A DNA stretch of 64,000 nt from Thermostichus sp. DRC_bins_24. GTDB taxonomy: Bacteria; Cyanobacteriota; Cyanobacteriia; Thermostichales; Thermostichaceae. Every line of letters starts with the position of its first letter. Positions within the stretch are counted from its first letter, which is position 1. The position numbers and the translations under genes are program-made. Where the stretch lies: positions 1 through 64,000 of the forward strand of contig JAUQVK010000035.1 of assembly GCA_039794845.1 (NCBI GenBank), written 5' to 3'. Under the pieces are notes generated by a model, which was given only the letters and a program-made list of their open reading frames with translations, was not told the DNA's origin and searched no databases. Below, piece by piece: positions 1 to 12,343 of the stretch.

Positions 1-2378
1 CTAGAACCAGGCACCGATTTCAGCACTTGCGCCCAAAGTTCCAGAACTTTTGGAGTAATTTTTGATGGATTGTTGCAACAGCCAAAAGTGATATACCCGT
101 TCCTTAACACAGGTGGATCAACAACTTCTGGAGCTGCTTCACTGGGCCTGTAACAGAGAAAACTATGTGGCATCCTGACTAATTTTTCGGTATGTAACCC
201 ATCAGTCATGTCTTCGGGATCAGCATAATTGTCTGTAATTCGATAGTCAACCACTGACATTCCCGTTGTATCAGGATACCCAATGTATGTGACTTGTACG
301 GGTGCTGCTCTTAAAGCCAATAGGTGCACTCTAGAACCTCCTGTATGTCCACCCAGATCTACCAGGATGTCTATTTGATCCTCACGAATCATCTCCGCAG
401 CTTTCTGATCAGGAATCTTTGCTATAGTACGCCAGCCCGTGGCAAGTTTCTCGATCTTCCTAGTAACATCATCTGGGCCTTCAACATTTGAATAGCAATA
501 AATAAGGAACTTTTCTTGGTCATGATTTTCGTAAATTCCCTCCATAAAGAAGTTGACAGAATGCTTTCGAAAGTCCCCTGATAAGTAGCCGATGCGGATT
601 GGCCGGTCAGGATTATTCTCGTTAGGGTATGGTAACCAGTATTGTCGATGTCTATGTTGGAAATTGAGTCCCCATCTTTGATGTTCTAGAAAAGTTTCTT
701 GTGGATCGAAGTCTTCCGAATAGTGCATTGACATAAGAATATTCGATGCTGCACTTGGAAGGCCCGGTGCAAGTTCACCTGCTTTGCGATAAGAGGCTAA
801 TGCCTCTTGCAAACGACACTGCTCCAGATAAGCTCCCCCCAAATTGAGGTGAGCCATTACAAAGTTTTCCTTCAGTCTTATGGCAGTTTGGTAACTGTCA
901 ATCGCCTCCTGCAAACGTGACTGCTTAACTAGCGCTAGCCCTCGGTAAAAATATGCATCTGGTAGCTTGGGATCAAGATTGATTGCCTCTTCTAGATGAG
1001 ATAACGAATCATCGATCTTATTTTGTCCATAGAGCATAGCGCCAATGTTGCAATAGGCCTCAGCCAAATTGGCATCCACCTCAATTGCTCTCTGGAAGTA
1101 TAGCTGCGCCTCATCTTCTTTCTGTAACATTTGATAAGCTCGGCCAAGGTTGTTGTAAGCCCTAGCGAAAGCTGGTTCTAGATCTATCACTTGCTTGAGT
1201 TTCTCTATAGCTGTTTCATACTGACCCAAATCTAGATGGTAACAAGCTAGGCTATGTAGATATTCTGGATTAGTAACATCTAAGTCACAAGCAATCTTCA
1301 GATGGAACCCCGCTCGATGTATTGACTTCTGAGTACGATACAGCAACCCAAGATTATGATGGGCCTCTGCATATTTCGGATCCAGTGCTATGGCCATTTG
1401 AAAGTAGTCAAGCGCACGATTGGATCCCTTGTATCCAGATAGCTGAGTATCTGTAGCGATGTTACTTTCTTCTGCCCCAATATTTGTCTTTACTTCTTCT
1501 CTAAGGCCCCGGCTGATTGCAGCACCGATGTTGTTGTAGGCACGAGGGTATGACTGACGATGCTGCAGAGCGAGATGATAACAACGGAGTTCCTTTTCTA
1601 GATTGTCTTGTTCTCCATAGACTCGTCCGAGATTTAGGTATGCCTCCGCATATTGAGGATTCAAATCAATTGCCTTTTCTAGTAAGACCTGTGCTTCTTC
1701 TAACCTGCCCATCTCTGCCATAAGCAGGCCAACTTGGTGAAAGACTATAGGCTGATCTGGAAATTCACTGATCAGAATCTTAGATTGGTTGATCGCTGTT
1801 TCTAGGCGCCCAGACTTTTGATACGCAGTAAGTAGATCGATGCGCATCTCTAATTTATCTGGAGAAAGCTTAACTGCACGCTCAAGGGCAGCAATAGCGC
1901 TGTTCCAGCTACCTTCATGAATGTATACTTTGCCAAGTTGATAATGAGCTTCTGAATAAGCTGGCTCTAAATCTATAACAACCAATAAGCTAGCCTGCGC
2001 TTCTTCAAAATTTCCAGTCTGCAAGCTGGCAAGAGCCAAGTTAAAGTGTGCCGAAACGTTGTCTGGAGCTAGCTTGGTTGCTATCTTATAATGCTCAATC
2101 GCTTTACTCCAATTTTGGCTGGCTTGATACGCGGCCCCTAAGTTTACATGAAATGAGGGTTGGTCAGGTCGATGAGCAATTGCTTTGGAAATAAAATCGA
2201 CTGCTTGTTGATGTTTTCCTTGTTGATAGGCAAGTATGCCCCGATAATGGAGGGTCTCAACGTGATCAGGGTCAATAGCCAGAACTCTTTGGTAGTAGTC
2301 TTCAGCTTCCTTCCACTTCCCTTCTTGGTGATGCTTTATGCCTTCTGAAAGTAGAAAGTTTATAGAAGAATCTGACAT
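1..2378 (-). CDS. TPR-repeat GT41 glycosyltransferase (SPINDLY/OGT-like O-GlcNAc/O-fucosyltransferase), runs off the left edge of the window
   Basis: Manual translation from ATG 2378: MSDSSINFLLSEGIKHHQEGKWKEAEDYYQRVLAIDPDH..., many TPRs (e.g. AFARAYNNLGRAY), then GT41 motifs RIGYLSGDFRKHSV, IDILVDLGGHTGG, APVQVTYIGYPDTTG and FGCCNNPSKIT. The start codon and the last codons (LWAQVLKSVPGS) share one frame. Absent from the ORF track because there is no stop in the window. Confidence 0.9.
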   Translation of the reverse strand, partial: MSDSSINFLLSEGIKHHQEGKWKEAEDYYQRVLAIDPDHVETLHYRGILAYQQGKHQQAVDFISKAIAHRPDQPSFHVNLGAAYQASQNWSKAIEHYKIATKLAPDNVSAHFNLALASLQTGNFEEAQASLLVVIDLEPAYSEAHYQLGKVYIHEGSWNSAIAALERAVKLSPDKLEMRIDLLTAYQKSGRLETAINQSKILISEFPDQPIVFHQVGLLMAEMGRLEEAQVLLEKAIDLNPQYAEAYLNLGRVYGEQDNLEKELRCYHLALQHRQSYPRAYNNIGAAISRGLREEVKTNIGAEESNIATDTQLSGYKGSNRALDYFQMAIALDPKYAEAHHNLGLLYRTQKSIHRAGFHLKIACDLDVTNPEYLHSLACYHLDLGQYETAIEKLKQVIDLEPAFARAYNNLGRAYQMLQKEDEAQLYFQRAIEVDANLAEAYCNIGAMLYGQNKIDDSLSHLEEAINLDPKLPDAYFYRGLALVKQSRLQEAIDSYQTAIRLKENFVMAHLNLGGAYLEQCRLQEALASYRKAGELAPGLPSAASNILMSMHYSEDFDPQETFLEHQRWGLNFQHRHRQYWLPYPNENNPDRPIRIGYLSGDFRKHSVNFFMEGIYENHDQEKFLIYCYSNVEGPDDVTRKIEKLATGWRTIAKIPDQKAAEMIREDQIDILVDLGGHTGGSRVHLLALRAAPVQVTYIGYPDTTGMSVVDYRITDNYADPEDMTDGLHTEKLVRMPHSFLCYRPSEAAPEVVDPPVLRNGYITFGCCNNPSKITPKVLELWAQVLKSVPGS

Positions 2379-2530: not shown

Positions 2531-4237
2531 CTAGCGAGGAATGGTGAAGGTCACATCCAGGCGAGGGGCGCTAGAGGTGGTAAGTGGCTCAGGAGCACCT
2601 CTGTCGAACTCAGCACGGCAAACACCGTCAGAGCCCTGACTGACCTCAAAGCCAGCGGTCACAGTGGTAGTGGTCACACCAATAGGAGCCGTCACCGTGA
2701 TGATCGCTGTCTCAGTGACAACACCAATGCTGGTAGCAGTCTGAGTGCCAGGGGCAGTGGCAGTTACACTGACAGTGACATCAGCTTCAGCACTGGCCGT
2801 TACAGTGACAACAGGGCCAAGGGTAAAAGTACCAGTCTCAGTGACCAGTACAGTCGCCGTACCAGCCGCTGAGCCCGTAGCTACTGCAGTGAAACCGTCA
2901 ACCGCGACCGTACCGCTGAAGGTACCCGAGAAGGTAAAGCTTACGGAGCCGGTCTCAGTAATGCTAACCACAGCAGGCACGGTGCCACTGATGGTGCCGG
3001 AACCAGTTAGCGTAACTGCCTGAGTCTGAGTTTCAACAACGATGGCCGTCTGGGTAACAATGCCGGTAGCAGTTGCAGAGGCAGTACCAGTTGCCGTAGC
3101 TCCACCTGTTGCGGTAGCAGCCCAAACTGGGAAGGCTTGGTTGTTGAACACTTCACGAGCACACTGCAAGCGCACCTGATAGAAGCGGCTGCCAGAAACA
3201 GAACGCTGCACACCAGGGGCAACATCGGCAGTACGCGGCCCGGCAGAGACATCCCCACCCAACACGTTGCCGTTGATGCTCAAGGCAATGAAGCTGGGGG
3301 TTGAAGCCGGAGCAAAGAAATCGGTAGAGACAATGTTGTTGGGCGCGCCCAAGGTCACTTCTTGGAACACCACGTTGTTGGCCGGAACGTTGCTCGGCGT
3401 GGGATCCAGGAAGAAGAAACCAAGACCAATGTCACCAAACCCAGGGATGAAAGCCGAGTCATTCGAGGGCAACTGCACCAAGGTAAGCTGGGCAGTTTGC
3501 ACCACCGCGTTGGATGGAATCGAGCTCGGGATGGGGAAGGAAAGAATGGCACGGTAGTCGGTGTAAACGCCCACCGGAACATTTTCCGCCGGGCTGGCGC
3601 GGCGAATACCGTAGCCAACAGGGATCGCCCTTGGACTAGAGAAGATCTGACCGTTCGGGGTCACCGCAGCCAGTTGGGTAGCCAAGAAGCTGATCGGCCC
3701 ACCAGGAACAGCAACGTTACCGGTGGTGAAGGTGGCAACAAAGTTCTCCGCCAAGCCCAAACCAGAAGCAAACAGATTCGGCACCGTGCTGGAGATGGTA
3801 ACCCGGTACACCGCATCGTTGGTCAGCGGAGTGGCGAAGGTGATGGTGGCCTGAGTTCTGTCATCGTTGAAGGTGACGGTGCGGCTGGGCACAACACCCT
3901 GCTGGGGAGCAATGGAGGTGATGCTCAGAGCGGTGTTGAAAGGCCCTTCGTTAACCGGCTCGCTAAAGCGAATAACAATAGAAGTGGTGGTAGCAACGTT
4001 GGTCGAGCCATCCGTCGGAGAGAAGAAAATAACGCTGCCCGTTGGAGCCGGGGGAGGTGGCGGCGGAGCTGGGGGAGCTGGCGGCGGAGCCGGGGGCGGA
4101 GGTGGAGGCAGGGGCACCACGCTGGAAGAGCTGTCTTCGCTACAGCCGGCCAAAATAATCGGTAGCATCACCACCGCAGATGCCAGCGACAGAGACCCAA
4201 GTGACTTCATCAGCCACTTATATGTTTTTCCGTTCAT
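2531..4237 (-). CDS. Surface lipoprotein: poly-Pro linker, Ig-like (Big_5/SbsA-type) domain, DNRLRE/CBM96-like domain with a long Thr-rich insert
   Basis: Lipobox ILAG-C, PPPPPPPAPPP linker, Big_5-like SPTDGSTNVATTTSIVIRFSEPV...YRVTI...FTTG, DNRLRE-like RAILSFPIPSSIPSNAVVQTAQLTL and C-terminal APRLDVTF. Confidence 0.75.
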   Translation of the reverse strand: MNGKTYKWLMKSLGSLSLASAVVMLPIILAGCSEDSSSSVVPLPPPPPPAPPPAPPAPPPPPPAPTGSVIFFSPTDGSTNVATTTSIVIRFSEPVNEGPFNTALSITSIAPQQGVVPSRTVTFNDDRTQATITFATPLTNDAVYRVTISSTVPNLFASGLGLAENFVATFTTGNVAVPGGPISFLATQLAAVTPNGQIFSSPRAIPVGYGIRRASPAENVPVGVYTDYRAILSFPIPSSIPSNAVVQTAQLTLVQLPSNDSAFIPGFGDIGLGFFFLDPTPSNVPANNVVFQEVTLGAPNNIVSTDFFAPASTPSFIALSINGNVLGGDVSAGPRTADVAPGVQRSVSGSRFYQVRLQCAREVFNNQAFPVWAATATGGATATGTASATATGIVTQTAIVVETQTQAVTLTGSGTISGTVPAVVSITETGSVSFTFSGTFSGTVAVDGFTAVATGSAAGTATVLVTETGTFTLGPVVTVTASAEADVTVSVTATAPGTQTATSIGVVTETAIITVTAPIGVTTTTVTAGFEVSQGSDGVCRAEFDRGAPEPLTTSSAPRLDVTFTIPR

Positions 4238-4530
4238 TCTTTCTCCTCTTTACCAAAAAGTAGGGTTCGGCTGAACACTTCCCTTAACTTACCCGATCAA
4301 CCTCCCTAAGGCAACTGAAAGCCATAGAAGATAGCCACTCGGGCGGGAGACGCATACACGCCTGTGTCAGCGGTTGCTCTGGTTACTCCGTAAATCATAC
4401 AGGCAGATCCGGCCGGTTTGACAAGTGCCGCCGTTTTTTTCTGGATCGTTGGGGGATCCAACCTCAAGTCCGAAAGCTTGCCCGATGATCCTGATGATGT
4501 TGAACGGCGAGAAGGTCGCCATGGCTAAAC

Positions 4531-4790
4531 TCAACCTGTAGCGTCTTGTAGAAATTGCCCCGCTTGGGCTAGGGAAATCTCCAGCAGTTCGGCAATTTGG
4601 ACGGGATCCTGACCCTTGCGATGCAGGCGCTGCACAGGCCGCAGCTCAGCTTCGATGCCCTACTGGATACCTTCTTGTCGGCCAACGGCCACGAGGTCTT
4701 GGTGGAAGTGGGTTTTTTTGAATGGTTCGGGAATGATCAACATGGCTTGGATCTCCTCCCGGCTGAATTTGCCGAGCAAAATGCCGCCGA
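4531..4790 (-). pseudogene. C-terminal remnant of an Rpn-family (recombination-promoting nuclease/putative transposase, DUF2887-like) gene
   Basis: Minus-strand frame reads ILLGKFSREEIQAML...KKTHFHQDLVAVGRQEGIQ*GIEAELRPVQRLHRKGQDPVQIAELLEISLAQ...TG*. This is a typical Rpn tail (EGRQEG repeat plus HTH-like 'QIAELLEIS') with an in-frame TAG at 4660-4662 and no nuclease domain. Confidence 0.7.
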
Positions 4791-4849: not shown

Positions 4850-5104
4850 GTGCCAGAGAGGCTGATGGCGCTCTCGGACAGACAAGACCTCGCTCTAGAA
4901 GAGATGCGCCGGTATCGGGCAGAAGCTGACCAAAGGTTTCATGTCTTGCTTGAGAAAGTGCGCTACCTCATTCGTAGGCAAATCGCAGGAGCCACCACTA
5001 GAAACTTAGAAACTCGGCCGGGAACTTTTGTTGGTAGGGGAAAATTGTCTGCCCTCTGGCCGTTTCAATCTTCATCTATTTCCCATTCCAGCAGGTGCGC
5101 ATAG
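4850..5104 (+). pseudogene. Fragment of a small cyanobacterial coiled-coil hypothetical protein
   Basis: EEMRRYRAEADQRFHVLLEKVRYLIRR resembles the C-termini of small cyanobacterial coiled-coil proteins. It has no convincing start and a read-through tail. Confidence 0.3.
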
Positions 5105-5313
5105 GGAGCTACCAGACTGGGAGAGTAAAAGGCGATGGCTCGCAGAGCATGCCAGTCTTCCAAACAGCCAAAGACGGTCGGGTAATCGTTCCGTTCCAAC
5201 CGCTCTGCAATGGCCGCCACATCAGATTCGGTAAACCGGCGGGGATCCGCCCCCATAACCGGGGCTTCGGCTAACACCCCCGCGTCGTTTCGAGAATGGG
5301 ATCGAGCAGACAT
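5065..5313 (-). CDS. DUF2555 family protein
   Basis: Conserved cyanobacterial motif VAAIAERLERNDYPTVFGCLEDWHALRAIAF...PYAHLL. Start codon uncertain. Confidence 0.8.
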   Translation of the reverse strand: MSARSHSRNDAGVLAEAPVMGADPRRFTESDVAAIAERLERNDYPTVFGCLEDWHALRAIAFYSPSLVAPYAHLLEWEIDED

Positions 5314-5425
5314 AGGCAGCCTGAACACGCTACAAGCCGATCTTAACTTCTGAACCCGAAAGGCTCGCGCTTAAGAAGTAGATTTGTACAGGTTCTACAT
5401 ACAGCTGGCTCGAAACGACCCTTAC

Positions 5426-5776
5426 CTAGCGCAAGATTTCAAAATCCAGAACAGGCTCCGTTTGGGTGACCCGGTAATATCCCGCCTGGGTACGAACCGA
5501 GGCTTGATAAGGACTGGGTAAATCCAGAGACCGCAGGGGTGGGGCACTGGTGCGCTGATTCAGCAGGGTGGTGAAGTAAGCGGTGGTCTGTCGAGCTTGG
5601 GAACGCACCACCTCTTCGGGGTAAACGACCGGGTCAACATCCCTGCCCGTATCCAGCAGGATCGCATCCAGGGCATTCCCCACAGGATGAGAAGGATAGG
5701 TAATCTGAGCAAAAGCAGATCTCAGTGGGATCCCAGCCGACAGACAGCCCAGGGCAATTGCCAACATAAGACGCAT
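5426..5776 (-). CDS. Small secreted hypothetical protein (cyanobacterial)
   Basis: Signal peptide ending AFA-Q, GAGG RBS upstream of the ATG, C-terminal PLRSLDLPSPY motif. Confidence 0.7.
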   Translation of the reverse strand: MRLMLAIALGCLSAGIPLRSAFAQITYPSHPVGNALDAILLDTGRDVDPVVYPEEVVRSQARQTTAYFTTLLNQRTSAPPLRSLDLPSPYQASVRTQAGYYRVTQTEPVLDFEILR

Positions 5777-6024
5777 GTGTTGTGATTCCTCTTGCGCGAC
5801 AGCTCGTTCCTCAACACCAGAAAAAGGGGAGATTTCGATAGCGCTAATCAGCCCTTATCTCCGAAAAACATATTTTGACCCTTGACCGACAGCTGAAGCC
5901 GATTCTACTCGAAACAACCAAATCGGCAAGGGTTTCAGGTGGATACGACTGATATGACAACCGATATGACAAAAGATCCCACCGCCGACTAGGATCTGGA
6001 TGCTCCTGTTGGGATCCCTCGCCT

Positions 6025-7461
6025 GTGACTGTTTGTGTTCGCATCGCCCCTAGCCCGACCGGCAATTTGCACATCGGCACCGCTCGGACGGCGGTGTTCA
6101 ACTGGCTGTATGCCCATCGTCACGGTGGCAAATTTGTTTTGCGCATCGAAGATACCGACCGTGACCGCTCCTTGCCTCGGTATACCCGCAACATCCTGGC
6201 GGGGCTGGCTTGGTTAGGGCTGGACTGGGATGAAGGGCCGATTTATCAATCCCGCCGTATCGAACGGTATCAAGCGGTGGTGCAACAGCTTTTGGATCAA
6301 GGGTTGGCCTACCGTTGCTACGTTAGTGAGGCAGAACTGGAGGAGATGCGCACTGCTCAAAAAGCCGCCGGTAAGGCTCCTCGCTATGACAATCGCCACC
6401 GCTACCTCACGGAAGAGCAACGACAAGCCTACGAAGCCGAGGGGCGGCAACCGGTGATCCGCTTCAAAATCGAGGAGCCTCTGGAGGTCTCTTGGGTGGA
6501 TCTAATCCGGGGGCAGATCACCTGGAATACCCAAGATTTGGGAGGGGATATGGTGATCGCCCGAGCGGATGGTTACCCACTTTACAACCTGGCGGTGGTG
6601 GTGGATGACATCGATATGAAAATTACCCATGTGATTCGCGGTGAAGATCACATCGGCAATACTCCCAAGCAAATTTTGCTCTATCGTGCCCTTGGTCACC
6701 AACCACCCCAGTTTGCCCACTCTCCTTTAATTTTGAACCCGGAAGGCAAGAAGCTCTCTAAGCGGGATGGAGCCACCTCTGTGGCGGAGTTTCAACAGAT
6801 GGGCTTCTTGCCGGAAGCCCTGAAGAACTATTTGGCCCTGCTCAGTTGGTCGCCCCCCGATGGGGAGGAGATTTTCTCGGTTGAGAAGGCCGCCACCCTC
6901 TTTGATTTCGACCGGGTCACTCGTTCGGCGGCCCGCTTCGACTGGGATAAGCTGAACTGGATTAACAGCCAGTACATCAAACAGCTCTCGGCGGCAGAGT
7001 TGGTGGAGCGGCTCAGCCCCTTTTGGCAAGCAGCAGGGTTGGATCTAACCACGGTGCCGGATCCCACTTGGCTAGAAGACTTGGCCCGCCTAATTGCCGA
7101 TGGCATTGACCGCCTGACGGATGCCCCACCGCTAAGTCGGTTTTTGCTGCAGGATCCCCTCAGCTACACGGTGCCGGCCCTAGAACAACTGCGGCTCCCT
7201 GGGGTGGCTGAGGCCATGGCTGCCATGGCAGAAATCCTAGCCAGTGCCGATCTGCCCGAGATTTCGGTGGACAGCCTGAAACCGCTGGTGGATCAGGTGG
7301 CCAAAGCCCAGGGGATGAAAAAGGGCGTGCTGATGAAAAGTCTGCGGGCGGCCCTAACGGGAGATTTGCAGGGGCCAGACTTGATGGAATCGTTTGTGCT
7401 GCTGCAGCGGCGGGGTTGGGCCTTGGGGCGGCTAGAGATGGTGCAAAAGCTGGTCTCTTAA
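6025..7461 (+). CDS. gltX: Glutamate--tRNA ligase
   Basis: RIAPSPTGNLHIGT (HIGH motif), LRIEDTD, HVIRGEDH, KLSKR (KMSKS motif). Confidence 0.97.
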   Translation: MTVCVRIAPSPTGNLHIGTARTAVFNWLYAHRHGGKFVLRIEDTDRDRSLPRYTRNILAGLAWLGLDWDEGPIYQSRRIERYQAVVQQLLDQGLAYRCYVSEAELEEMRTAQKAAGKAPRYDNRHRYLTEEQRQAYEAEGRQPVIRFKIEEPLEVSWVDLIRGQITWNTQDLGGDMVIARADGYPLYNLAVVVDDIDMKITHVIRGEDHIGNTPKQILLYRALGHQPPQFAHSPLILNPEGKKLSKRDGATSVAEFQQMGFLPEALKNYLALLSWSPPDGEEIFSVEKAATLFDFDRVTRSAARFDWDKLNWINSQYIKQLSAAELVERLSPFWQAAGLDLTTVPDPTWLEDLARLIADGIDRLTDAPPLSRFLLQDPLSYTVPALEQLRLPGVAEAMAAMAEILASADLPEISVDSLKPLVDQVAKAQGMKKGVLMKSLRAALTGDLQGPDLMESFVLLQRRGWALGRLEMVQKLVS

Positions 7462-7627: not shown

Positions 7628-10600
7628 ATGTCTTCTGTTGCGCTGACGGGTTTGGATCCCACCTTGTTGGTTCAGCTCCAGGCTGCTAACGAAATTGTGC
7701 AGGAATTGGTGTTGCTGGCTTCGCCTCTGCCCGGGGAGGGTGGAGAAGTGGAGTCGGCGGTAGCGGGATTAGAGCATTGCCCCCTGAACCTGGCCCAAAC
7801 TCTGGTGCAGCAGGTGGTGAATCGCTTGGGGGCGGCCTCTGCCCGCATTTGGTTTTTCGACCCACAGCAGGGCTGTTTTCGGTCGGTGGCTCATGCTGGT
7901 TTGCTCAGCCCTGCCCAGGAGCAGGTGGAGCGGATTTACCCCGATAGCAGCCCCTTGGGGCGTGTGGCGCAGCAAGGGTTGCCGCTCTTGAGCAACAATC
8001 CGGCTCAAGAACCCTGGATGCCCGCCCCGGAGTGGGTGGAGGCCCATCATCTGCGCAGCTTTGTTGCTTACCCGATCAGCCGGGGGGAGGAGCGGTTGGG
8101 GGCTTTGGCCTTGTTTAGCCATACCCCTTTGGATGGCAGCTTTCTGGAGGTGGTGAAGTTTCTCTGCTCTTATGCCGCCAGCGCCATCATCAACGCGCAG
8201 CTGCTGGAGCGCAGCCAACGGCAGGCGGCCCGAGAGGCTTTGTTGAACCGCATCACCAGTACGGTGCATCGCTCTTTGCATTGGGATCAGATTGTCGCCA
8301 GAGCTTTGCAGGAGCTGCAGCAGACCCTCTTGGGGCTAAAAGGGCTCAGCCGCTGCTGTTTTTACAGCCTCAACCCCAGCCAACAAACCATTCAAGTGAC
8401 CCACGAGGCCCACAGCGCCGGGTTAACCCCCTCTCTGGGCCGGGTCTACCCCATGCAAGATTTTGGTCCTCTGTGTGAGCCGCTGCGGCAAGGGCAAGTG
8501 GTACAAATTGCTCTGCCTCTGCCGCCAGACCAAGATCCCTTGCCACCGGAAGGACTGGCGGCTTTTCAAGCGTTGCAGGCCCGCTCGGCGGTGTTGATCC
8601 CGGTGCAGTCGGTTGGCTCGGCAGGGGTGGAGTTTTTTGAATCGGGGTCGGGAGATCCCCACTTGGGAGGGTCGGCTCCAGAACCGGAGGGGATGATCGG
8701 CTTGTTGGGGGTATACATGACCACCCCCCACCCCTGGCAACCGGAAGAGATCGAGCTGTTGCGCTCGGTGGCCTACCAACTGGCCATTGCCCTGACGCGC
8801 TCCAGCTTGTTCGATCATGCCCGCCAACAGACGGAACGGCTGGCCCTGTTGCACTCAATCACTGCGGCGATTCGCTCTAGCTTAGAGCCAACCACCCTCT
8901 TCCATGCGATCACGCAGCAGATCGGGGTGGCCTTTCAGGCGGATGTCTGTACCTTGGCCCTTTGGCAGCCGGAACAGGAACTGTTGCATCCTGTCGGCAT
9001 TTATGCCCCGCAGCTTACCCCCACTCAATTGGAAGCACTGTTGCCGGGGATGGCTTTGCTGGGGGGATCCCCAGAACTTCCCTGGGTAGAGCCCGGGATC
9101 CCGCAAGCCCTGCCGGAAACCATCAAGGCCAAGTTGCGCTTGGGGGGCAGTTTGCTGGCTAGGTTAACAGGGCCAGTGGTGCTGCCGGATCCGAAGACGC
9201 TGCTGCACTGCTTGGCGGATCTGGAGCCGCGACGTCAGGGCAGTGGGCTGTTGCTGGTTCCCCTTTTCGCCGCCGGCAATCCCGGTTCTACTCCACAAGG
9301 TGCAGAGCACCGCAGGCAGGAGCTTTTGGGGGGAATCGCCTTGATGCGTCATCCCCAACCGGGATCCCTGGTTCCCCCCCCTTGGCAAGCGGATGATCTG
9401 GAACTGGCAGAAGCGGTGGCGGAGCAGGCGGCTATGGCCATTGGTCAGGCGCGACTGTTGAAACAAACCCAGCACCTCTTGGTACAAACCCGGCAACAGG
9501 CGGAACAGGCTTCCCTGCTCAACCGCATGACCGATCGCATTCGTCATTCTTTGGATCTGGATGAGATTTTGCAGTCGGCAGTTGAAGAAGTTGGCCGAGC
9601 CCTGCAAGCCTGCCGGGCCCAATTTGTCTTTTTCGACCCGGCTCAGGAAACCGGTATCTTTCGTTATGCCTACGCACGACCCGGTATTGATAGCTGGCTG
9701 GGTCGTCGCATTCCCATCCGGGACAACCCGATTGCCCCCTACCTGGAGGCACAGGCGGATCCCTTGGAAATTCGCATTTGGTCGGGGCTGGAAAGTTTCG
9801 ACGCAGAAAGTCGCAGACGGTTTCAGGAGGCGGGGGTGAGGACGGTGATCTCCGCCAGTTTGCAACTGGGATCCGGCACCTTTGGGGTGTTGAGCGTGCA
9901 TCGCTGTCATGCCGACTATCTTGCTGTGCAAGGTGCGGAACACCCTCTTGCTGTGGAAGGTGCGGAGTCCCTTGGCCAAGCTGGGGATCGCCCTGCCTGT
10001 TTAGAGGATTGGTCGCCTGCGGATCAAACCCTGTTGCGCTTGGTGGCTGAACAGCTGATCTTGGCCATCACCCATTCCCGCCTCTACGAAAAAACTCAGC
10101 AGCAGGCCCGCCGCGAGACCCTGTTGAATGAGTTGACTGCTCAGATTCGCACCTCTTTGGAGCCGCGCCAGGTGTTGTACTCCATCGTCCGGTCTTTGGA
10201 GGCAGCTTTGCAGTTGGATGGGGGTGCACAGGGGTCGCCGGACGCCAGCAGCCGGGGATCCCGTGACCGCTGTGAGATTATCCTCTACCGCTCGCAGCCC
10301 AGTGTGCGGCAGGACTGGATCGAGCATTGCCACTCCTTTTTGCGCTGGATGGATACCCGACCCCTGGCGGATGGAACCCCCTTTGTAGAGGGGCTGGCCC
10401 AGATGCGGCAGCCGGTGGTTTGGTCGGAGGGGATCTTTGTGCGTGGCTCAATGCAGGAGGATCCCCTCAAGGAAGTGCCGATTCCCTTTCATTCCTTCCG
10501 GGATCCGCGGCTGGTACTGCATACTCCCCAGCTGGGGCAAGCGGGGGATGGTGCTCCGCCCCTTGCCGAGCAAGAACGCTTTTTGGAGGCCCGTTTGGAG

Positions 10601-12343
10601 TTTTGCCTCATGCACCCCGATACCTACGAGCTGTTGCGGCGGGGGGAACCGTTTCTCCTCAAGGATGCCCGGCGGGATCCCCTCTACCCGGATTTGGGCG
10701 AAGAGGTAACGGAGCGGCTGCGCTACCTTTTCCAGGTGTTGGCCATTCGCAGCATGGCCCTGATCCCCATTCGTCAGGAGGGGGAGTTGATCGGCACAAT
10801 TGCCCTGATCGCCGATCCGCACCCGCGGGAGTTTCGCCCGGAGGAGCTGTCCTTGGCCATGGCGGTGGCGGAACAGGCGGGGATCGCCCTCAAACAGGCG
10901 CAGCTCTACGAACAAACCCGCATCTCTGCCCAACGGGAAAGCCTACTGCGTCAGATTGCCCAGCGCCTCAGTGGCACCTACGATCCTCAGCAGGTGGTGC
11001 AAATCGCCCTCGAGGGTATGGCGGATGCTCTGCAAATTAGCCAGTGTGACTTTATCGCCCTGCAGGATCCCTGTGCTGCGGGGTTGCCCGGTCGGAGGAC
11101 ACAGGATCAAGCCGCTGCGGATCCTTTGCCCCATTGGCCAACTCCCTCCGAACCCCTGAAGGTTCTACAAGAATATCGCCGTCAACCGGGGATCCCTTCT
11201 CATTTGGGGCAGACGGTGCCTCCTGATTTGAATTGGCTGCTCCTGCTCAACTGCTATGGCAGCCGCGATACCCTCTTGATTCAGGATGTGAACCAGTTCC
11301 CGTTGCCCGCCCAAACCCGACGAAATCTGTTGCAGTCGGGGATCCGCTCTTTGTTGTGTGTGCCCATGACCACCGATGCCGACCAGATCGCGGGGGTACT
11401 CTGTGCCTTTACTCCACCGGAAGCCGCGGATGCCGGCGGTACCCTCACCCGTTCCGAAGGAACGGGCTTTTCCGAAAGCGAGACGGATTTGGTGAAGGCC
11501 TTGGCGGATATCGCAGCGGTGGCTTTGCAACGGGCCTTGTTTTACGAACGGGTGCGGCGGCAGGAAGCAACGGCAGCGGCCTTGCGGGGCCTCACGGAGG
11601 GGCGAGAGGCAGAAAGTCGGCGTTTGGCAGCGGATTTGCACGATCAAACCCTGGCGGATCTGGGGGCCTTGTCTCGCCAAATTCAGGAGCTTTCCTGCGA
11701 TCCCACCATCGGTCAGTCGGGGCAGGATCGGTTGCAGGCCATGAGTGCCCAACTGCGGGAGACCATCGCTGAGCTGCGCGGAATTGTAGAAGACTTGCAG
11801 CCGACGGCAATGCGGGCCTTTAACCTCGGCCCCGCCCTGCGCAGCCTTCTGGAACGTGCCGCCCAACGCTCCGCCCATCCCCTTGTAACCCGCTTTGATG
11901 ATCGGGCCAATGGGTTGCTGTCCCGTCTTAGCCCCGCTTGCCAGAGCAGCATTTTCCGCATCGTGCAAGAAGCCCTGAACAACATCGTCAAACATGCCGG
12001 GGCGCAGCGGATCGACATCACCATTCAGCCGAAGGCACTGGGCACCCGTCCGTCCGGGGGGTACGACTCAGGGGACGGTTCCTTGCCCGACCCTCGAGAT
12101 CCCTACACCCACCTGGAGTTGAAGATCATCGACAATGGCCGGGGCATGCCGCAAGGTGACCCAGAGCTTGGGTCGCAAGGGGAGCCCAACCCAGAAACCC
12201 CCGGGCCGCGCAGTCATGGGCATGGCCTTCTAAATATGCGCTACCGGGCCGAGTTGATTGGGGCGACAATCGCCTGGCGTACTCGCCGCTTTGGCAGTGG
12301 CACTGTGGTGGAGTTGCTGATCCCTTTGCCCCCACCCCCCTGA
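7628..12343 (+). CDS. Cytoplasmic multi-GAF sensor histidine kinase, NarX/HisKA_3 type
   Basis: About six GAF repeats with LxxVAxQxAIAL linker helices, H-box RRLAADLHDQ, FRIVQEALNNIVKHA, DNGRG, GHGLLNMRYRA. No transmembrane segments. Confidence 0.9.
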   Translation: MSSVALTGLDPTLLVQLQAANEIVQELVLLASPLPGEGGEVESAVAGLEHCPLNLAQTLVQQVVNRLGAASARIWFFDPQQGCFRSVAHAGLLSPAQEQVERIYPDSSPLGRVAQQGLPLLSNNPAQEPWMPAPEWVEAHHLRSFVAYPISRGEERLGALALFSHTPLDGSFLEVVKFLCSYAASAIINAQLLERSQRQAAREALLNRITSTVHRSLHWDQIVARALQELQQTLLGLKGLSRCCFYSLNPSQQTIQVTHEAHSAGLTPSLGRVYPMQDFGPLCEPLRQGQVVQIALPLPPDQDPLPPEGLAAFQALQARSAVLIPVQSVGSAGVEFFESGSGDPHLGGSAPEPEGMIGLLGVYMTTPHPWQPEEIELLRSVAYQLAIALTRSSLFDHARQQTERLALLHSITAAIRSSLEPTTLFHAITQQIGVAFQADVCTLALWQPEQELLHPVGIYAPQLTPTQLEALLPGMALLGGSPELPWVEPGIPQALPETIKAKLRLGGSLLARLTGPVVLPDPKTLLHCLADLEPRRQGSGLLLVPLFAAGNPGSTPQGAEHRRQELLGGIALMRHPQPGSLVPPPWQADDLELAEAVAEQAAMAIGQARLLKQTQHLLVQTRQQAEQASLLNRMTDRIRHSLDLDEILQSAVEEVGRALQACRAQFVFFDPAQETGIFRYAYARPGIDSWLGRRIPIRDNPIAPYLEAQADPLEIRIWSGLESFDAESRRRFQEAGVRTVISASLQLGSGTFGVLSVHRCHADYLAVQGAEHPLAVEGAESLGQAGDRPACLEDWSPADQTLLRLVAEQLILAITHSRLYEKTQQQARRETLLNELTAQIRTSLEPRQVLYSIVRSLEAALQLDGGAQGSPDASSRGSRDRCEIILYRSQPSVRQDWIEHCHSFLRWMDTRPLADGTPFVEGLAQMRQPVVWSEGIFVRGSMQEDPLKEVPIPFHSFRDPRLVLHTPQLGQAGDGAPPLAEQERFLEARLEFCLMHPDTYELLRRGEPFLLKDARRDPLYPDLGEEVTERLRYLFQVLAIRSMALIPIRQEGELIGTIALIADPHPREFRPEELSLAMAVAEQAGIALKQAQLYEQTRISAQRESLLRQIAQRLSGTYDPQQVVQIALEGMADALQISQCDFIALQDPCAAGLPGRRTQDQAAADPLPHWPTPSEPLKVLQEYRRQPGIPSHLGQTVPPDLNWLLLLNCYGSRDTLLIQDVNQFPLPAQTRRNLLQSGIRSLLCVPMTTDADQIAGVLCAFTPPEAADAGGTLTRSEGTGFSESETDLVKALADIAAVALQRALFYERVRRQEATAAALRGLTEGREAESRRLAADLHDQTLADLGALSRQIQELSCDPTIGQSGQDRLQAMSAQLRETIAELRGIVEDLQPTAMRAFNLGPALRSLLERAAQRSAHPLVTRFDDRANGLLSRLSPACQSSIFRIVQEALNNIVKHAGAQRIDITIQPKALGTRPSGGYDSGDGSLPDPRDPYTHLELKIIDNGRGMPQGDPELGSQGEPNPETPGPRSHGHGLLNMRYRAELIGATIAWRTRRFGSGTVVELLIPLPPPP

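Follow-up and report, generated by a model that had tools for sequence, protein, structure and literature searches.

A cysteine-clamped, hypervariable insert in a lipoprotein of hot-spring Thermostichus: a candidate strain-specific recognition surface

What is a Thr-rich segment of about 180 residues, enclosed by two cysteines, doing within an otherwise conserved lipoprotein of hot-spring cyanobacteria, and why does it differ so strongly from one strain to the next? The question is raised by a gene at positions 2531..4237 (reverse strand, as are all features of the protein given below) of a window of 64,000 nucleotides, i.e. the whole stretch of DNA analysed here, which covers positions 1 to 64,000 of contig JAUQVK010000035.1 of Thermostichus sp. 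DRC_bins_24 (assembly GCA_039794845.1). The gene encodes a lipoprotein of 568 amino acids (P0001; stop codon at 2531-2533), in which the segment in question, hereafter the insert, comprises residues 360-539 (2621..3160). A first-pass annotation, made from the sequence alone, had read this insert as one giant two-stranded β-hairpin. The reading preferred here, with a probability of roughly 55%, is that the protein is lipid-anchored and carries a Cys-clamped, out-and-back β module that is exposed, diversifying, recombining and probably glycosylated, and that acts as a strain-specific recognition surface. The hypervariability of the insert under positive selection is its dominant feature and, like the linked glycosyltransferase gene, had been missed in the first-pass annotation. 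Within the literature covered, to which subscription journals did not belong, no account of this protein family or of its hypervariability was found.

The insert stands apart from the rest of the protein as soon as identity to the window protein is followed in bins of 10 residues over 82 homologues: identity amounts to 56-93% in residues 176-365 and to 66-72% in residues 526-545, but merely to 7-39% in residues 376-525. The sequence on either side of it belongs to a single conserved β domain (the host domain, residues ~180-358 plus 541-568), which the Cys-bounded insert splits, and among seven genomes this host domain is 74-91% identical, versus 24-46% for the insert. The boundaries themselves do not vary, since C359 (3161..3163) and C540 (2618..2620) are invariant in all 116 aligned sequences, and the Cys-to-Cys length stays between 163 and 213 amino acids across 125 members. 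Together with C32 of the lipobox (LAGC), these are the only cysteines of the protein, as had been noted from the start. Closely related sequences illustrate how sharply the variation is confined. For instance, between two genomes (G007 and G011) there is no difference in the host domain or anywhere in the GT41 glycosyltransferase gene that follows, while the centre of the insert holds ~20 substitutions and two 6-nt indels in 154 columns and the remaining ~600 columns hold a single substitution. In a contig from a hot-spring metagenome, both flanks match the window and 2649 is joined to 3121, the 471 nt in between being swapped for a diverged stretch of the same length. In another, near-identical metagenome contig (run X1), 7 differences fall within 15 nt at window 2816-2830 (residues ~470-474), which is a small conversion-like patch.

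The substitutions are of a particular kind. The ratio of non-synonymous to synonymous substitution rates (dN/dS) was calculated by the Nei-Gojobori method for 73 pairs from 40 loci with an insert identity of 75-99.5%, and its median is 1.99 in the insert (n = 64) versus 0.21 in the host domain (n = 62). Because the pairs are related and the estimates take no account of recombination, these magnitudes are rough, but the contrast between insert and flank is large regardless. It stems from both terms, with a dN of 0.122 in the insert versus 0.044 in the host domain and a dS of 0.033 versus 0.201. The flank value of 0.21 also implies that the lipoprotein gene is real and constrained. In one class of eight sequences, codon positions 1 and 2 hold 96 of the 107 variable sites of the insert, as compared with 25 of 53 in the host domain. 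The variation is clustered in separate patches, between which synonymous changes are nearly absent, and patch haplotypes are re-assorted among sequences. Given the low dS of the insert and the incongruence of its flanks, insert alleles appear to have spread recently by recombination and then to have undergone fast amino-acid change.

Variability of this degree does not mean that the insert lacks order. The stretch from C359 to C540 (182 residues) contains 45 Thr, 28 Ala, 28 Val, 21 Gly, 14 Ser and 5 Pro, and Ser plus Thr account for 35% of the insert core versus 16% of the host domain. Thr and Ser alternate with other residues throughout, as the first-pass annotation had stated: their autocorrelation is -0.45 at lag 1 and +0.51 at lag 2, values equalled in 0 of 2000 shuffles, the alternation fraction is 0.66 versus 0.46 +/- 0.04 in shuffles, and the period-2 amphipathic pattern is still coherent at lag 6. 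The host domain, with values of -0.03 and -0.03, does not alternate. This strong period-2 pattern and the bounded length (163-213 residues) are the reasons why the insert is read here as a folded domain and not as a linker. Several landmarks pointed out earlier are also where they had been placed, namely V446-D447-G448 (2894..2902) near the midpoint, 88 residues from C359 and 92 from C540, the Glu residues of two TETG motifs 19 residues to either side (E428 to D447, E467 to G448), and two prolines, P421 and P475, 26 and 27 residues out. A mirror symmetry of the sequence as a whole, however, is not borne out residue by residue: residue identity over the DG mirror is 15 of 88, a value matched by 86 of 500 composition shuffles. 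Since this is chance level, the mirrored TETG and Pro motifs are no evidence by themselves, and residue mirror identity was dropped as an argument for a hairpin.

Support for an out-and-back course of the chain comes instead from covariation, from paired indels and from the central turn. In a mean-field direct coupling analysis of 116 unique inserts (effective number of sequences, Meff, 43), the anti-diagonals i+j = 893 and 895 have the top mean score among the long ones. With 137 inserts (Meff 50), the band 888-892 +/-6 holds 16-17 of the top 60 long-range pairs versus 4.5-4.9 expected (p about 3e-6 to 7e-6, which kinship among the sequences overstates). The enrichment is also seen at the pre-specified centre of 894 (13-16 of the top 60 versus 4.6-4.9 expected) and after removal of gap-rich columns (12 of the top 40 on the anti-diagonal versus 2.7 expected). 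Enriched anti-diagonals span i+j = 884-894, which puts the covariation centre at ~442-447, and the covarying pairs form a ladder (371-518/522, 398-499, 404-484, 408-479, 411-477, 413-476, 417-474 and 428-465). The anti-diagonal expected of the hairpin is thereby present, at a modest enrichment. A second, local hairpin centred at ~511 (12 of 80 pairs versus 2.2 expected) was rejected as a probable co-gapping artefact, because gaps fill its columns in 37-90% of sequences and its pairs are arranged as a block instead of a ladder.

Insertions and deletions tell a similar story. Same-sign paired indels occur at three nested levels, at ~0.12/0.84, 0.27/0.66 and 0.45/0.50 of the insert length. At the base, two segments specific to the window, 379-383 and 509-513, mirror each other and are gapped in ~90% or more of the other aligned sequences, and the outermost segment pair (N1-C1) shows a length correlation of rho 0.73. 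At the middle level, the loops at ~0.27/0.66 of class B (52 sequences) co-vary in length from 7/7 to 21/19 (r 0.76) and in composition too, e.g. NNNN going with NNN and EEGD with EEDG; at the tip, indels of 2+2 and 6+6 amino acids lie on either side of the midpoint. The three closest relatives carry NG in place of the window's DG, with G448 conserved, in agreement with the central tight turn that had been proposed at V446-D447-G448. Finally, structure prediction with AlphaFold2 was attempted for residues 176-568 with an 83-row alignment (model 1) and for residues 352-545 with 116 rows (model 2). The predicted local distance difference test scores (pLDDT) were 40.9 and 46.3, so that neither model is usable as a structure and model 2 is quoted for its strand pattern only. 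Its strands are symmetric about 447/448 (379-394/505-520, 406-410/487-491, 415-420/477-482, 432-435/460-463 and 440-446/449-455), the innermost pair flanking the turn. Taken together, these results support the topological core of the first-pass annotation, in which the halves of the insert run out and back, nested in antiparallel fashion around DG, as judged from sequence. The mirror coupling of the halves has stood, with a centre within ~3 residues of DG; the unbroken strand pair has not, as Gly, Pro, Asn or Asp break the chain every 7-12 residues and the longest clear run is 19.

The second peculiarity of the locus lies next to the lipoprotein gene. A gene for a protein with TPR repeats and a Glyco_transf_41 (OGT-like) domain (Pfam PF13844, E 2.2e-35, plus TPR families) occupies 3..2378 on the same strand, its 3' end being cut at the contig start, and begins 150 bp downstream of the lipoprotein gene. 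A TPR protein directly follows the lipoprotein gene in 6 of 6 loci from relatives' genomes, a GT41 domain was present in all 5 of those scanned with Pfam, followed by a GT1-like gene and FkbM methyltransferases, and, of 25 metagenome loci that extend 600 bp or more downstream, 23 have the same TPR-GT41 neighbour. In the four same-genus genomes without the lipoprotein, no orthologue of this neighbour was found (4 of 4), only paralogues 30-31% identical. The TPR part is the most divergent between genomes (32-77% identity), as compared with 53-86% for the catalytic part. GC content was recorded as well: it is 0.44 in the TPR-GT41 gene and 0.58 in the lipoprotein gene of the window (genome, 0.569), with a sharp step at ~2400-2500 that resembles a horizontally exchanged island, and the GT41 gene has the lower value in 5 of 6 genomes (L020-L023 included).

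GT41 enzymes are protein glycosyltransferases, not polysaccharide polymerases, and cytoplasmic glycosyltransferases paired with an exported substrate are well known, as in Aah with AIDA-I or FlmG with flagellin. In the present locus, the TPR part would be the presumed substrate-binding module, and the substrate could equally be the Thr/Pro linker of the lipoprotein. The closest precedent is Ogt of Synechococcus elongatus, a TPR-GT41 protein on which glycosylation of the exported pilin PilA depends; there as here, such an enzyme stands beside or acts on a secreted, Ser/Thr-rich surface protein. HMW1C with HMW1 is a further case of a cytoplasmic glycosyltransferase with an exported substrate, but the window's insert has 0 NxS/T sequons, which makes N-glycosylation of the HMW1C type unsuitable. 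From the GT41 linkage and the composition of the insert, and in keeping with the S. elongatus precedent, we infer O-glycosylation, prior to export, of the Ser/Thr-rich insert or of the Thr/Pro linker; the TPR-GT41 enzyme would most likely act in the cytoplasm, on the Ser/Thr-lined face of the insert or on that linker.

The domain that hosts the insert is harder to assign. It had been described as DNRLRE-like, a claim for which no family model provides a match: CBM96 (PF24517) gives none to the lipoprotein at E <= 10 in Pfam, and DNRLRE (NF033679) none at E <= 1. Alignment of the family profile with a 4x CBM96 protein by hhalign reached a probability of 0.6 and an E of 0.089 over 32 columns, i.e. 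no significant match, and CBM96 clusters are the neighbours of the host domain in the ESM Atlas, which is a weak lead. A database match between a distant homologue (P0231) and a DNRLRE protein (E 3.4e-5) failed in pairwise BLASTP (E ~5) and was not used as proof of homology. What resembles the CBM96/DNRLRE group (structure 7VBO) and the TGF-beta-propeptide-like β-sandwich is a pair of motifs that brackets CBM96, an early strand that reads LSFPIPSSIPSNAVVQTAQLTLV here versus FRFDVSSIPQNAHVIQATLSLY there, and a final strand, PRLDVTF versus PKLTVTY. On these weak structural and feature leads, the host domain may be CBM96/DNRLRE-like. To our knowledge, no CBM96 domain has a disulfide-bounded hypervariable insert of ~180 residues before its last strands. 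Members of CBM96 are alginate-binding β-sandwiches.

How literally should the out-and-back topology be taken? In its full form, the insert would be a giant hairpin, each arm ~85-90 residues long and one face lined with Thr, which hides its hydrophobic face by assembling with further copies into a stalk, fibre, barrel or pore. The anti-diagonal covariation and mirrored indels, the DG/NG turn, the amphipathic pattern coherent up to lag 6 and the mirror-placed strands of model 2 would all follow from it, as would the want of a compact match in the PDB, which is what an elongated model would give; long β-hairpin stems, such as those of pore-forming toxins and phage fibres, have the same alternating polar/apolar pattern. 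Nevertheless, such a hairpin is doubtful, given the turn-formers every 7-12 residues, the longest clear run of only 19, a pLDDT of 46 and the variable segments themselves, since the co-varying, length-variable loops carry their own N/G/P-rich, turn-like centres and thus resemble separate small hairpins. Moreover, a rolled-up hairpin explains the covariation equally well: in a double-stranded β-helix (jelly roll), the first strands pair with the last in nested antiparallel fashion, which yields the same anti-diagonal contact pattern as an extended hairpin. An arm of ~85 residues is roughly twice that of a standard jelly roll, and no fold match was found here to either jelly rolls or hairpin stems. 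As the AlphaFold2 models are poor, extended ribbon, rolled-up hairpin and oligomer are indistinguishable. At the opposite extreme, the insert might be a mucin-like, largely disordered and O-glycosylated Ser/Thr spacer that drifts because its composition alone matters. The Ser plus Thr content, the low-confidence predictions, the adjoining glycosyltransferase gene and the very low sequence conservation would fit a spacer of this sort. It is nonetheless quite improbable, because a spacer would hardly be expected to alternate so strictly, at period 2, between Thr/Ser and hydrophobic residues, or to have as few as 5 Pro in 182 residues, a bounded length, position-specific covariation with paired indels and invariant bounding cysteines, and because drift would bring dN/dS to ~1, not well above it.

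Other explanations concern the origin of the variation and its object. The patchiness of the variation, with synonymous changes nearly absent between patches, the re-assorted haplotypes and a signal peptide plus linker that are conserved and common to other lipoproteins could all be products of programmed diversification, the insert being the target of a diversity-generating retroelement (DGR) or an expression site fed from silent cassettes. Known DGR targets, e.g. lipoproteins with C-type-lectin variable regions, likewise combine a hypervariable, near-purely non-synonymous patch with a conserved scaffold. Here, however, no reverse transcriptase (RVT_1) was found in the 99.93%-complete genome, nor any second DNA or protein copy of the insert, template repeat or silent cassette, and adenine is not favoured at the variable columns of the insert (A 59, C 61, G 66 and T 41 of 107). 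In addition, the variable region of ~500 bp far exceeds typical DGR variable repeats. A DGR or cassette mechanism is therefore very improbable and largely refuted, and selection plus recombination is the likely cause. Alternatively, the insert might tune a CBM96-like lectin, the groove of the host domain being reshaped to fit strain-specific polysaccharides made by the GT41, GT1 and FkbM genes, with the protein as a glycan anchor. Alginate binding by CBM96 would be in line with this. So would the divergence and low GC of the neighbouring glycosyltransferase and methyltransferase genes. Since, on the other hand, profile and HMM comparisons with CBM96 gave no significant match, the binding-site residues are not mappable and GT41 enzymes do not polymerise polysaccharides, tuning of a lectin is improbable too.

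The preferred reading, a Cys-clamped, diversifying and probably glycosylated recognition module, has to be held against a number of observations that weigh on the other side. The AlphaFold monomer and Foldseek route by which the hairpin was to be verified gave no confident model (pLDDT 40.9 and 46.3) and no usable fold match: model 2 had no match in the PDB at E <= 0.001 (query template-modelling score, TMq, at most 0.20; root-mean-square deviation ~12-23 Å), the insert alone had no usable feature match in the ESM Atlas (TM at most 0.32), and a PDB sequence search with the family profile returned nothing relevant, the best hit (E 0.037) falling in the signal/linker region. The covariation relies on a Meff of ~50 and on an alignment that is ambiguous in the middle, with p-values overstated as already mentioned. 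The paired indels, proposed as a check of the hairpin, are mirrored at the three levels and in the pair N1-C1 but not in N3-C3, for which the global alignment gives a length rho of -0.03, and some neighbouring segments that are not mirror partners correlate no less strongly than the mirror pairs (up to 0.92). As for glycosylation, GT41 paralogues are common in the genus (3-5 per genome), and the one next to the lipoprotein could have a different substrate or belong to a polysaccharide pathway. The trees of GT41 and lipoprotein disagree, the host domain of the window being nearest to that of G004 (91%) and the window's GT41 to that of G005 (76%). In the distant homologue P0231, the insert is acidic instead of Thr-rich, and the 1.8 kb downstream contain no GT41.

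With these points in mind, the following arrangement can be proposed. The segment from Cys359 to Cys540 would be a β-rich domain of ~180 residues nested in the conserved C-terminal β domain, with halves that pair antiparallel and nested about the DG/NG turn at the midpoint, the ribbon being either extended or rolled and stacked into a sandwich. The two invariant cysteines at the base probably form a disulfide that closes the loop at its exit from the host domain, and both are kept in P0231 despite an insert of unrelated composition. Exposed in this way, the insert would act as a strain-specific recognition surface whose sequence is driven apart by positive selection and whose pieces may pass from one strain to another by homologous recombination, while its length and amphipathic β pattern persist. 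The selective agent would most likely be a binder, for example phages or other mat cells, and the pattern is one to be expected of a phage receptor or of a cell-cell recognition determinant in a dense mat.

The remainder of the protein follows a familiar plan for an exported, lipid-anchored protein. Residues 1-32 (4142..4237) form a signal peptide that ends in the lipobox L-A-G-C with the lipidated Cys32; residues 29-32, preceded by a hydrophobic core, agree with the consensus [LVI][ASTVI][GAS]C, and L29, G31 and C32 are invariant among 34 aligned homologues. A Pro-rich linker, polyproline II-like, spans residues 42-65 (4043..4114; TPTPTP in some homologues) and is followed by a Big_5 bacterial Ig-like domain at residues 68-172 (3722..4036; Pfam PF13205, E 2.2e-13, 51.3 bits versus a gathering cut-off of 23.6). 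The N-terminal part of the host domain, residues 180-358 (3164..3700), is recognised by its conservation, and its C-terminal strands, residues 541-568 (2534..2617; CRAEFD...PRLDVTFTIPR), are highly conserved and have the best pLDDT of model 1 (67-69). The order would accordingly be read as lipobox, Pro-rich stalk, Big_5 Ig-like domain and a host domain that is maybe CBM96/DNRLRE-like. Two open reading frames (ORFs) on the opposite strand, at 2745-3023 (92 amino acids) and 3362-4165 (267 amino acids), overlap the gene; they are most likely by-products of a coding strand rich in ACN, GCN, GTN and Pro codons, not genes. Further along the window, an ORF of 478 amino acids (6025-7461), which by eye resembles a glutamyl-tRNA synthetase, lies upstream of one of 1571 amino acids on the forward strand (7628-12343), by eye a multi-GAF sensor with a C-terminal histidine-kinase-like region.

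The family is narrowly distributed. One search returned 150 homologous proteins at E <= 0.001, and close homologues are restricted to hot-spring Thermostichus/'Synechococcus' of the Yellowstone type. In a phmmer search of the whole protein against 1.84 billion representatives, matches outside the family were to Big_5 or the N-terminal part only, and a search with the insert alone (residues 366-535) retrieved the protein itself only, by means of a word-based prefilter that is weak for such a composition. Its own genome holds a single copy of the gene. Among 11 further genomes of the genus, 7 have it at full length, one of them as a tandem duplicate; searches of the remaining 4, and of other families, did not find it. 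The tandem copies (L023 of G008; 2815-4602 and 4861-6648, 595 amino acids each) have inserts that differ in one residue only, near the second Cys. A shorter form (~470-490 amino acids; P0072-P0103 of alignment A1) has the signal peptide, linker, host domain and insert without Big_5, and both long and short forms are found among Thermostichus isolates. P0231, a protein of 448 amino acids from another genus (G015), is the distant homologue referred to above: it has retained both cysteines along with the signal peptide and the host domain, and its Cys-to-Cys stretch of ~170 residues is acidic and Leu-rich, with a composition unlike that of the window's insert. At its locus (L025, 102-3184), two small predicted lipoproteins of 234 and 285 amino acids follow, with no Pfam match. 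Finally, residues 1-65 (window 4043-4237) share 50-70% identity with otherwise unrelated proteins of 754-784 amino acids (P0233-P0235, loci L010-L012), in which no Pfam domain is recognised and which sit in same-genus genomes without the 568-residue type. Judging by these sequences, the signal peptide and Pro-rich linker may form a common export and anchor cassette on varied cargo.

That a hypervariable surface protein is encoded beside glycosylation genes is not new in itself. TraA of Myxococcus, with its variable PA14-like domain, offers a parallel, since it too is surface-anchored, belongs to a bacterium that lives densely, socially or in mats, and has one domain that is highly polymorphic between strains in an otherwise conserved protein, with recognition specificity as the supposed driver; it differs in fold and family, and in the lipoprotein the variable part is nested in another domain. 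The novelty lies in the module itself, nested and Cys-bounded, which has a mirror topology and neither relatives nor a dedicated mutator. A more ambitious picture, conceivable but one that we hold only tentatively and regard as on the unlikely side, is that of a new display scaffold, a disulfide-clamped out-and-back β-ribbon of ~2 x 85 residues, either extended or a long double-stranded β-helix, the Thr/Ser face of which would be O-glycosylated by a dedicated, co-diversifying TPR-GT41. It would form a polymorphic 'identity antenna' of Yellowstone-type mat cyanobacteria that is read by phages or neighbour cells, with the tip and the paired side loops evolving by positive selection and inter-strain gene conversion, free of any dedicated mutator.

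Populations of hot-spring Synechococcus/Thermostichus are a model for microbial population genetics and recombination, and the loci under strong diversifying selection in them, as well as the drivers of that selection, are largely unknown. The lipoprotein is a concrete, single-copy candidate, in which a sharply bounded module with dN/dS well above 1 and gene-conversion patches is tightly linked to a protein glycosyltransferase, so that the idea of a phage receptor or of a cell-recognition determinant can be put directly to the test in cultured isolates. As a structure, the insert is without detectable relatives and beyond the reach of current predictors, but its covariation indicates a simple nested topology. 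It could be a new β scaffold able to absorb extreme changes of sequence at 55-65 C, a property of interest for protein engineering.

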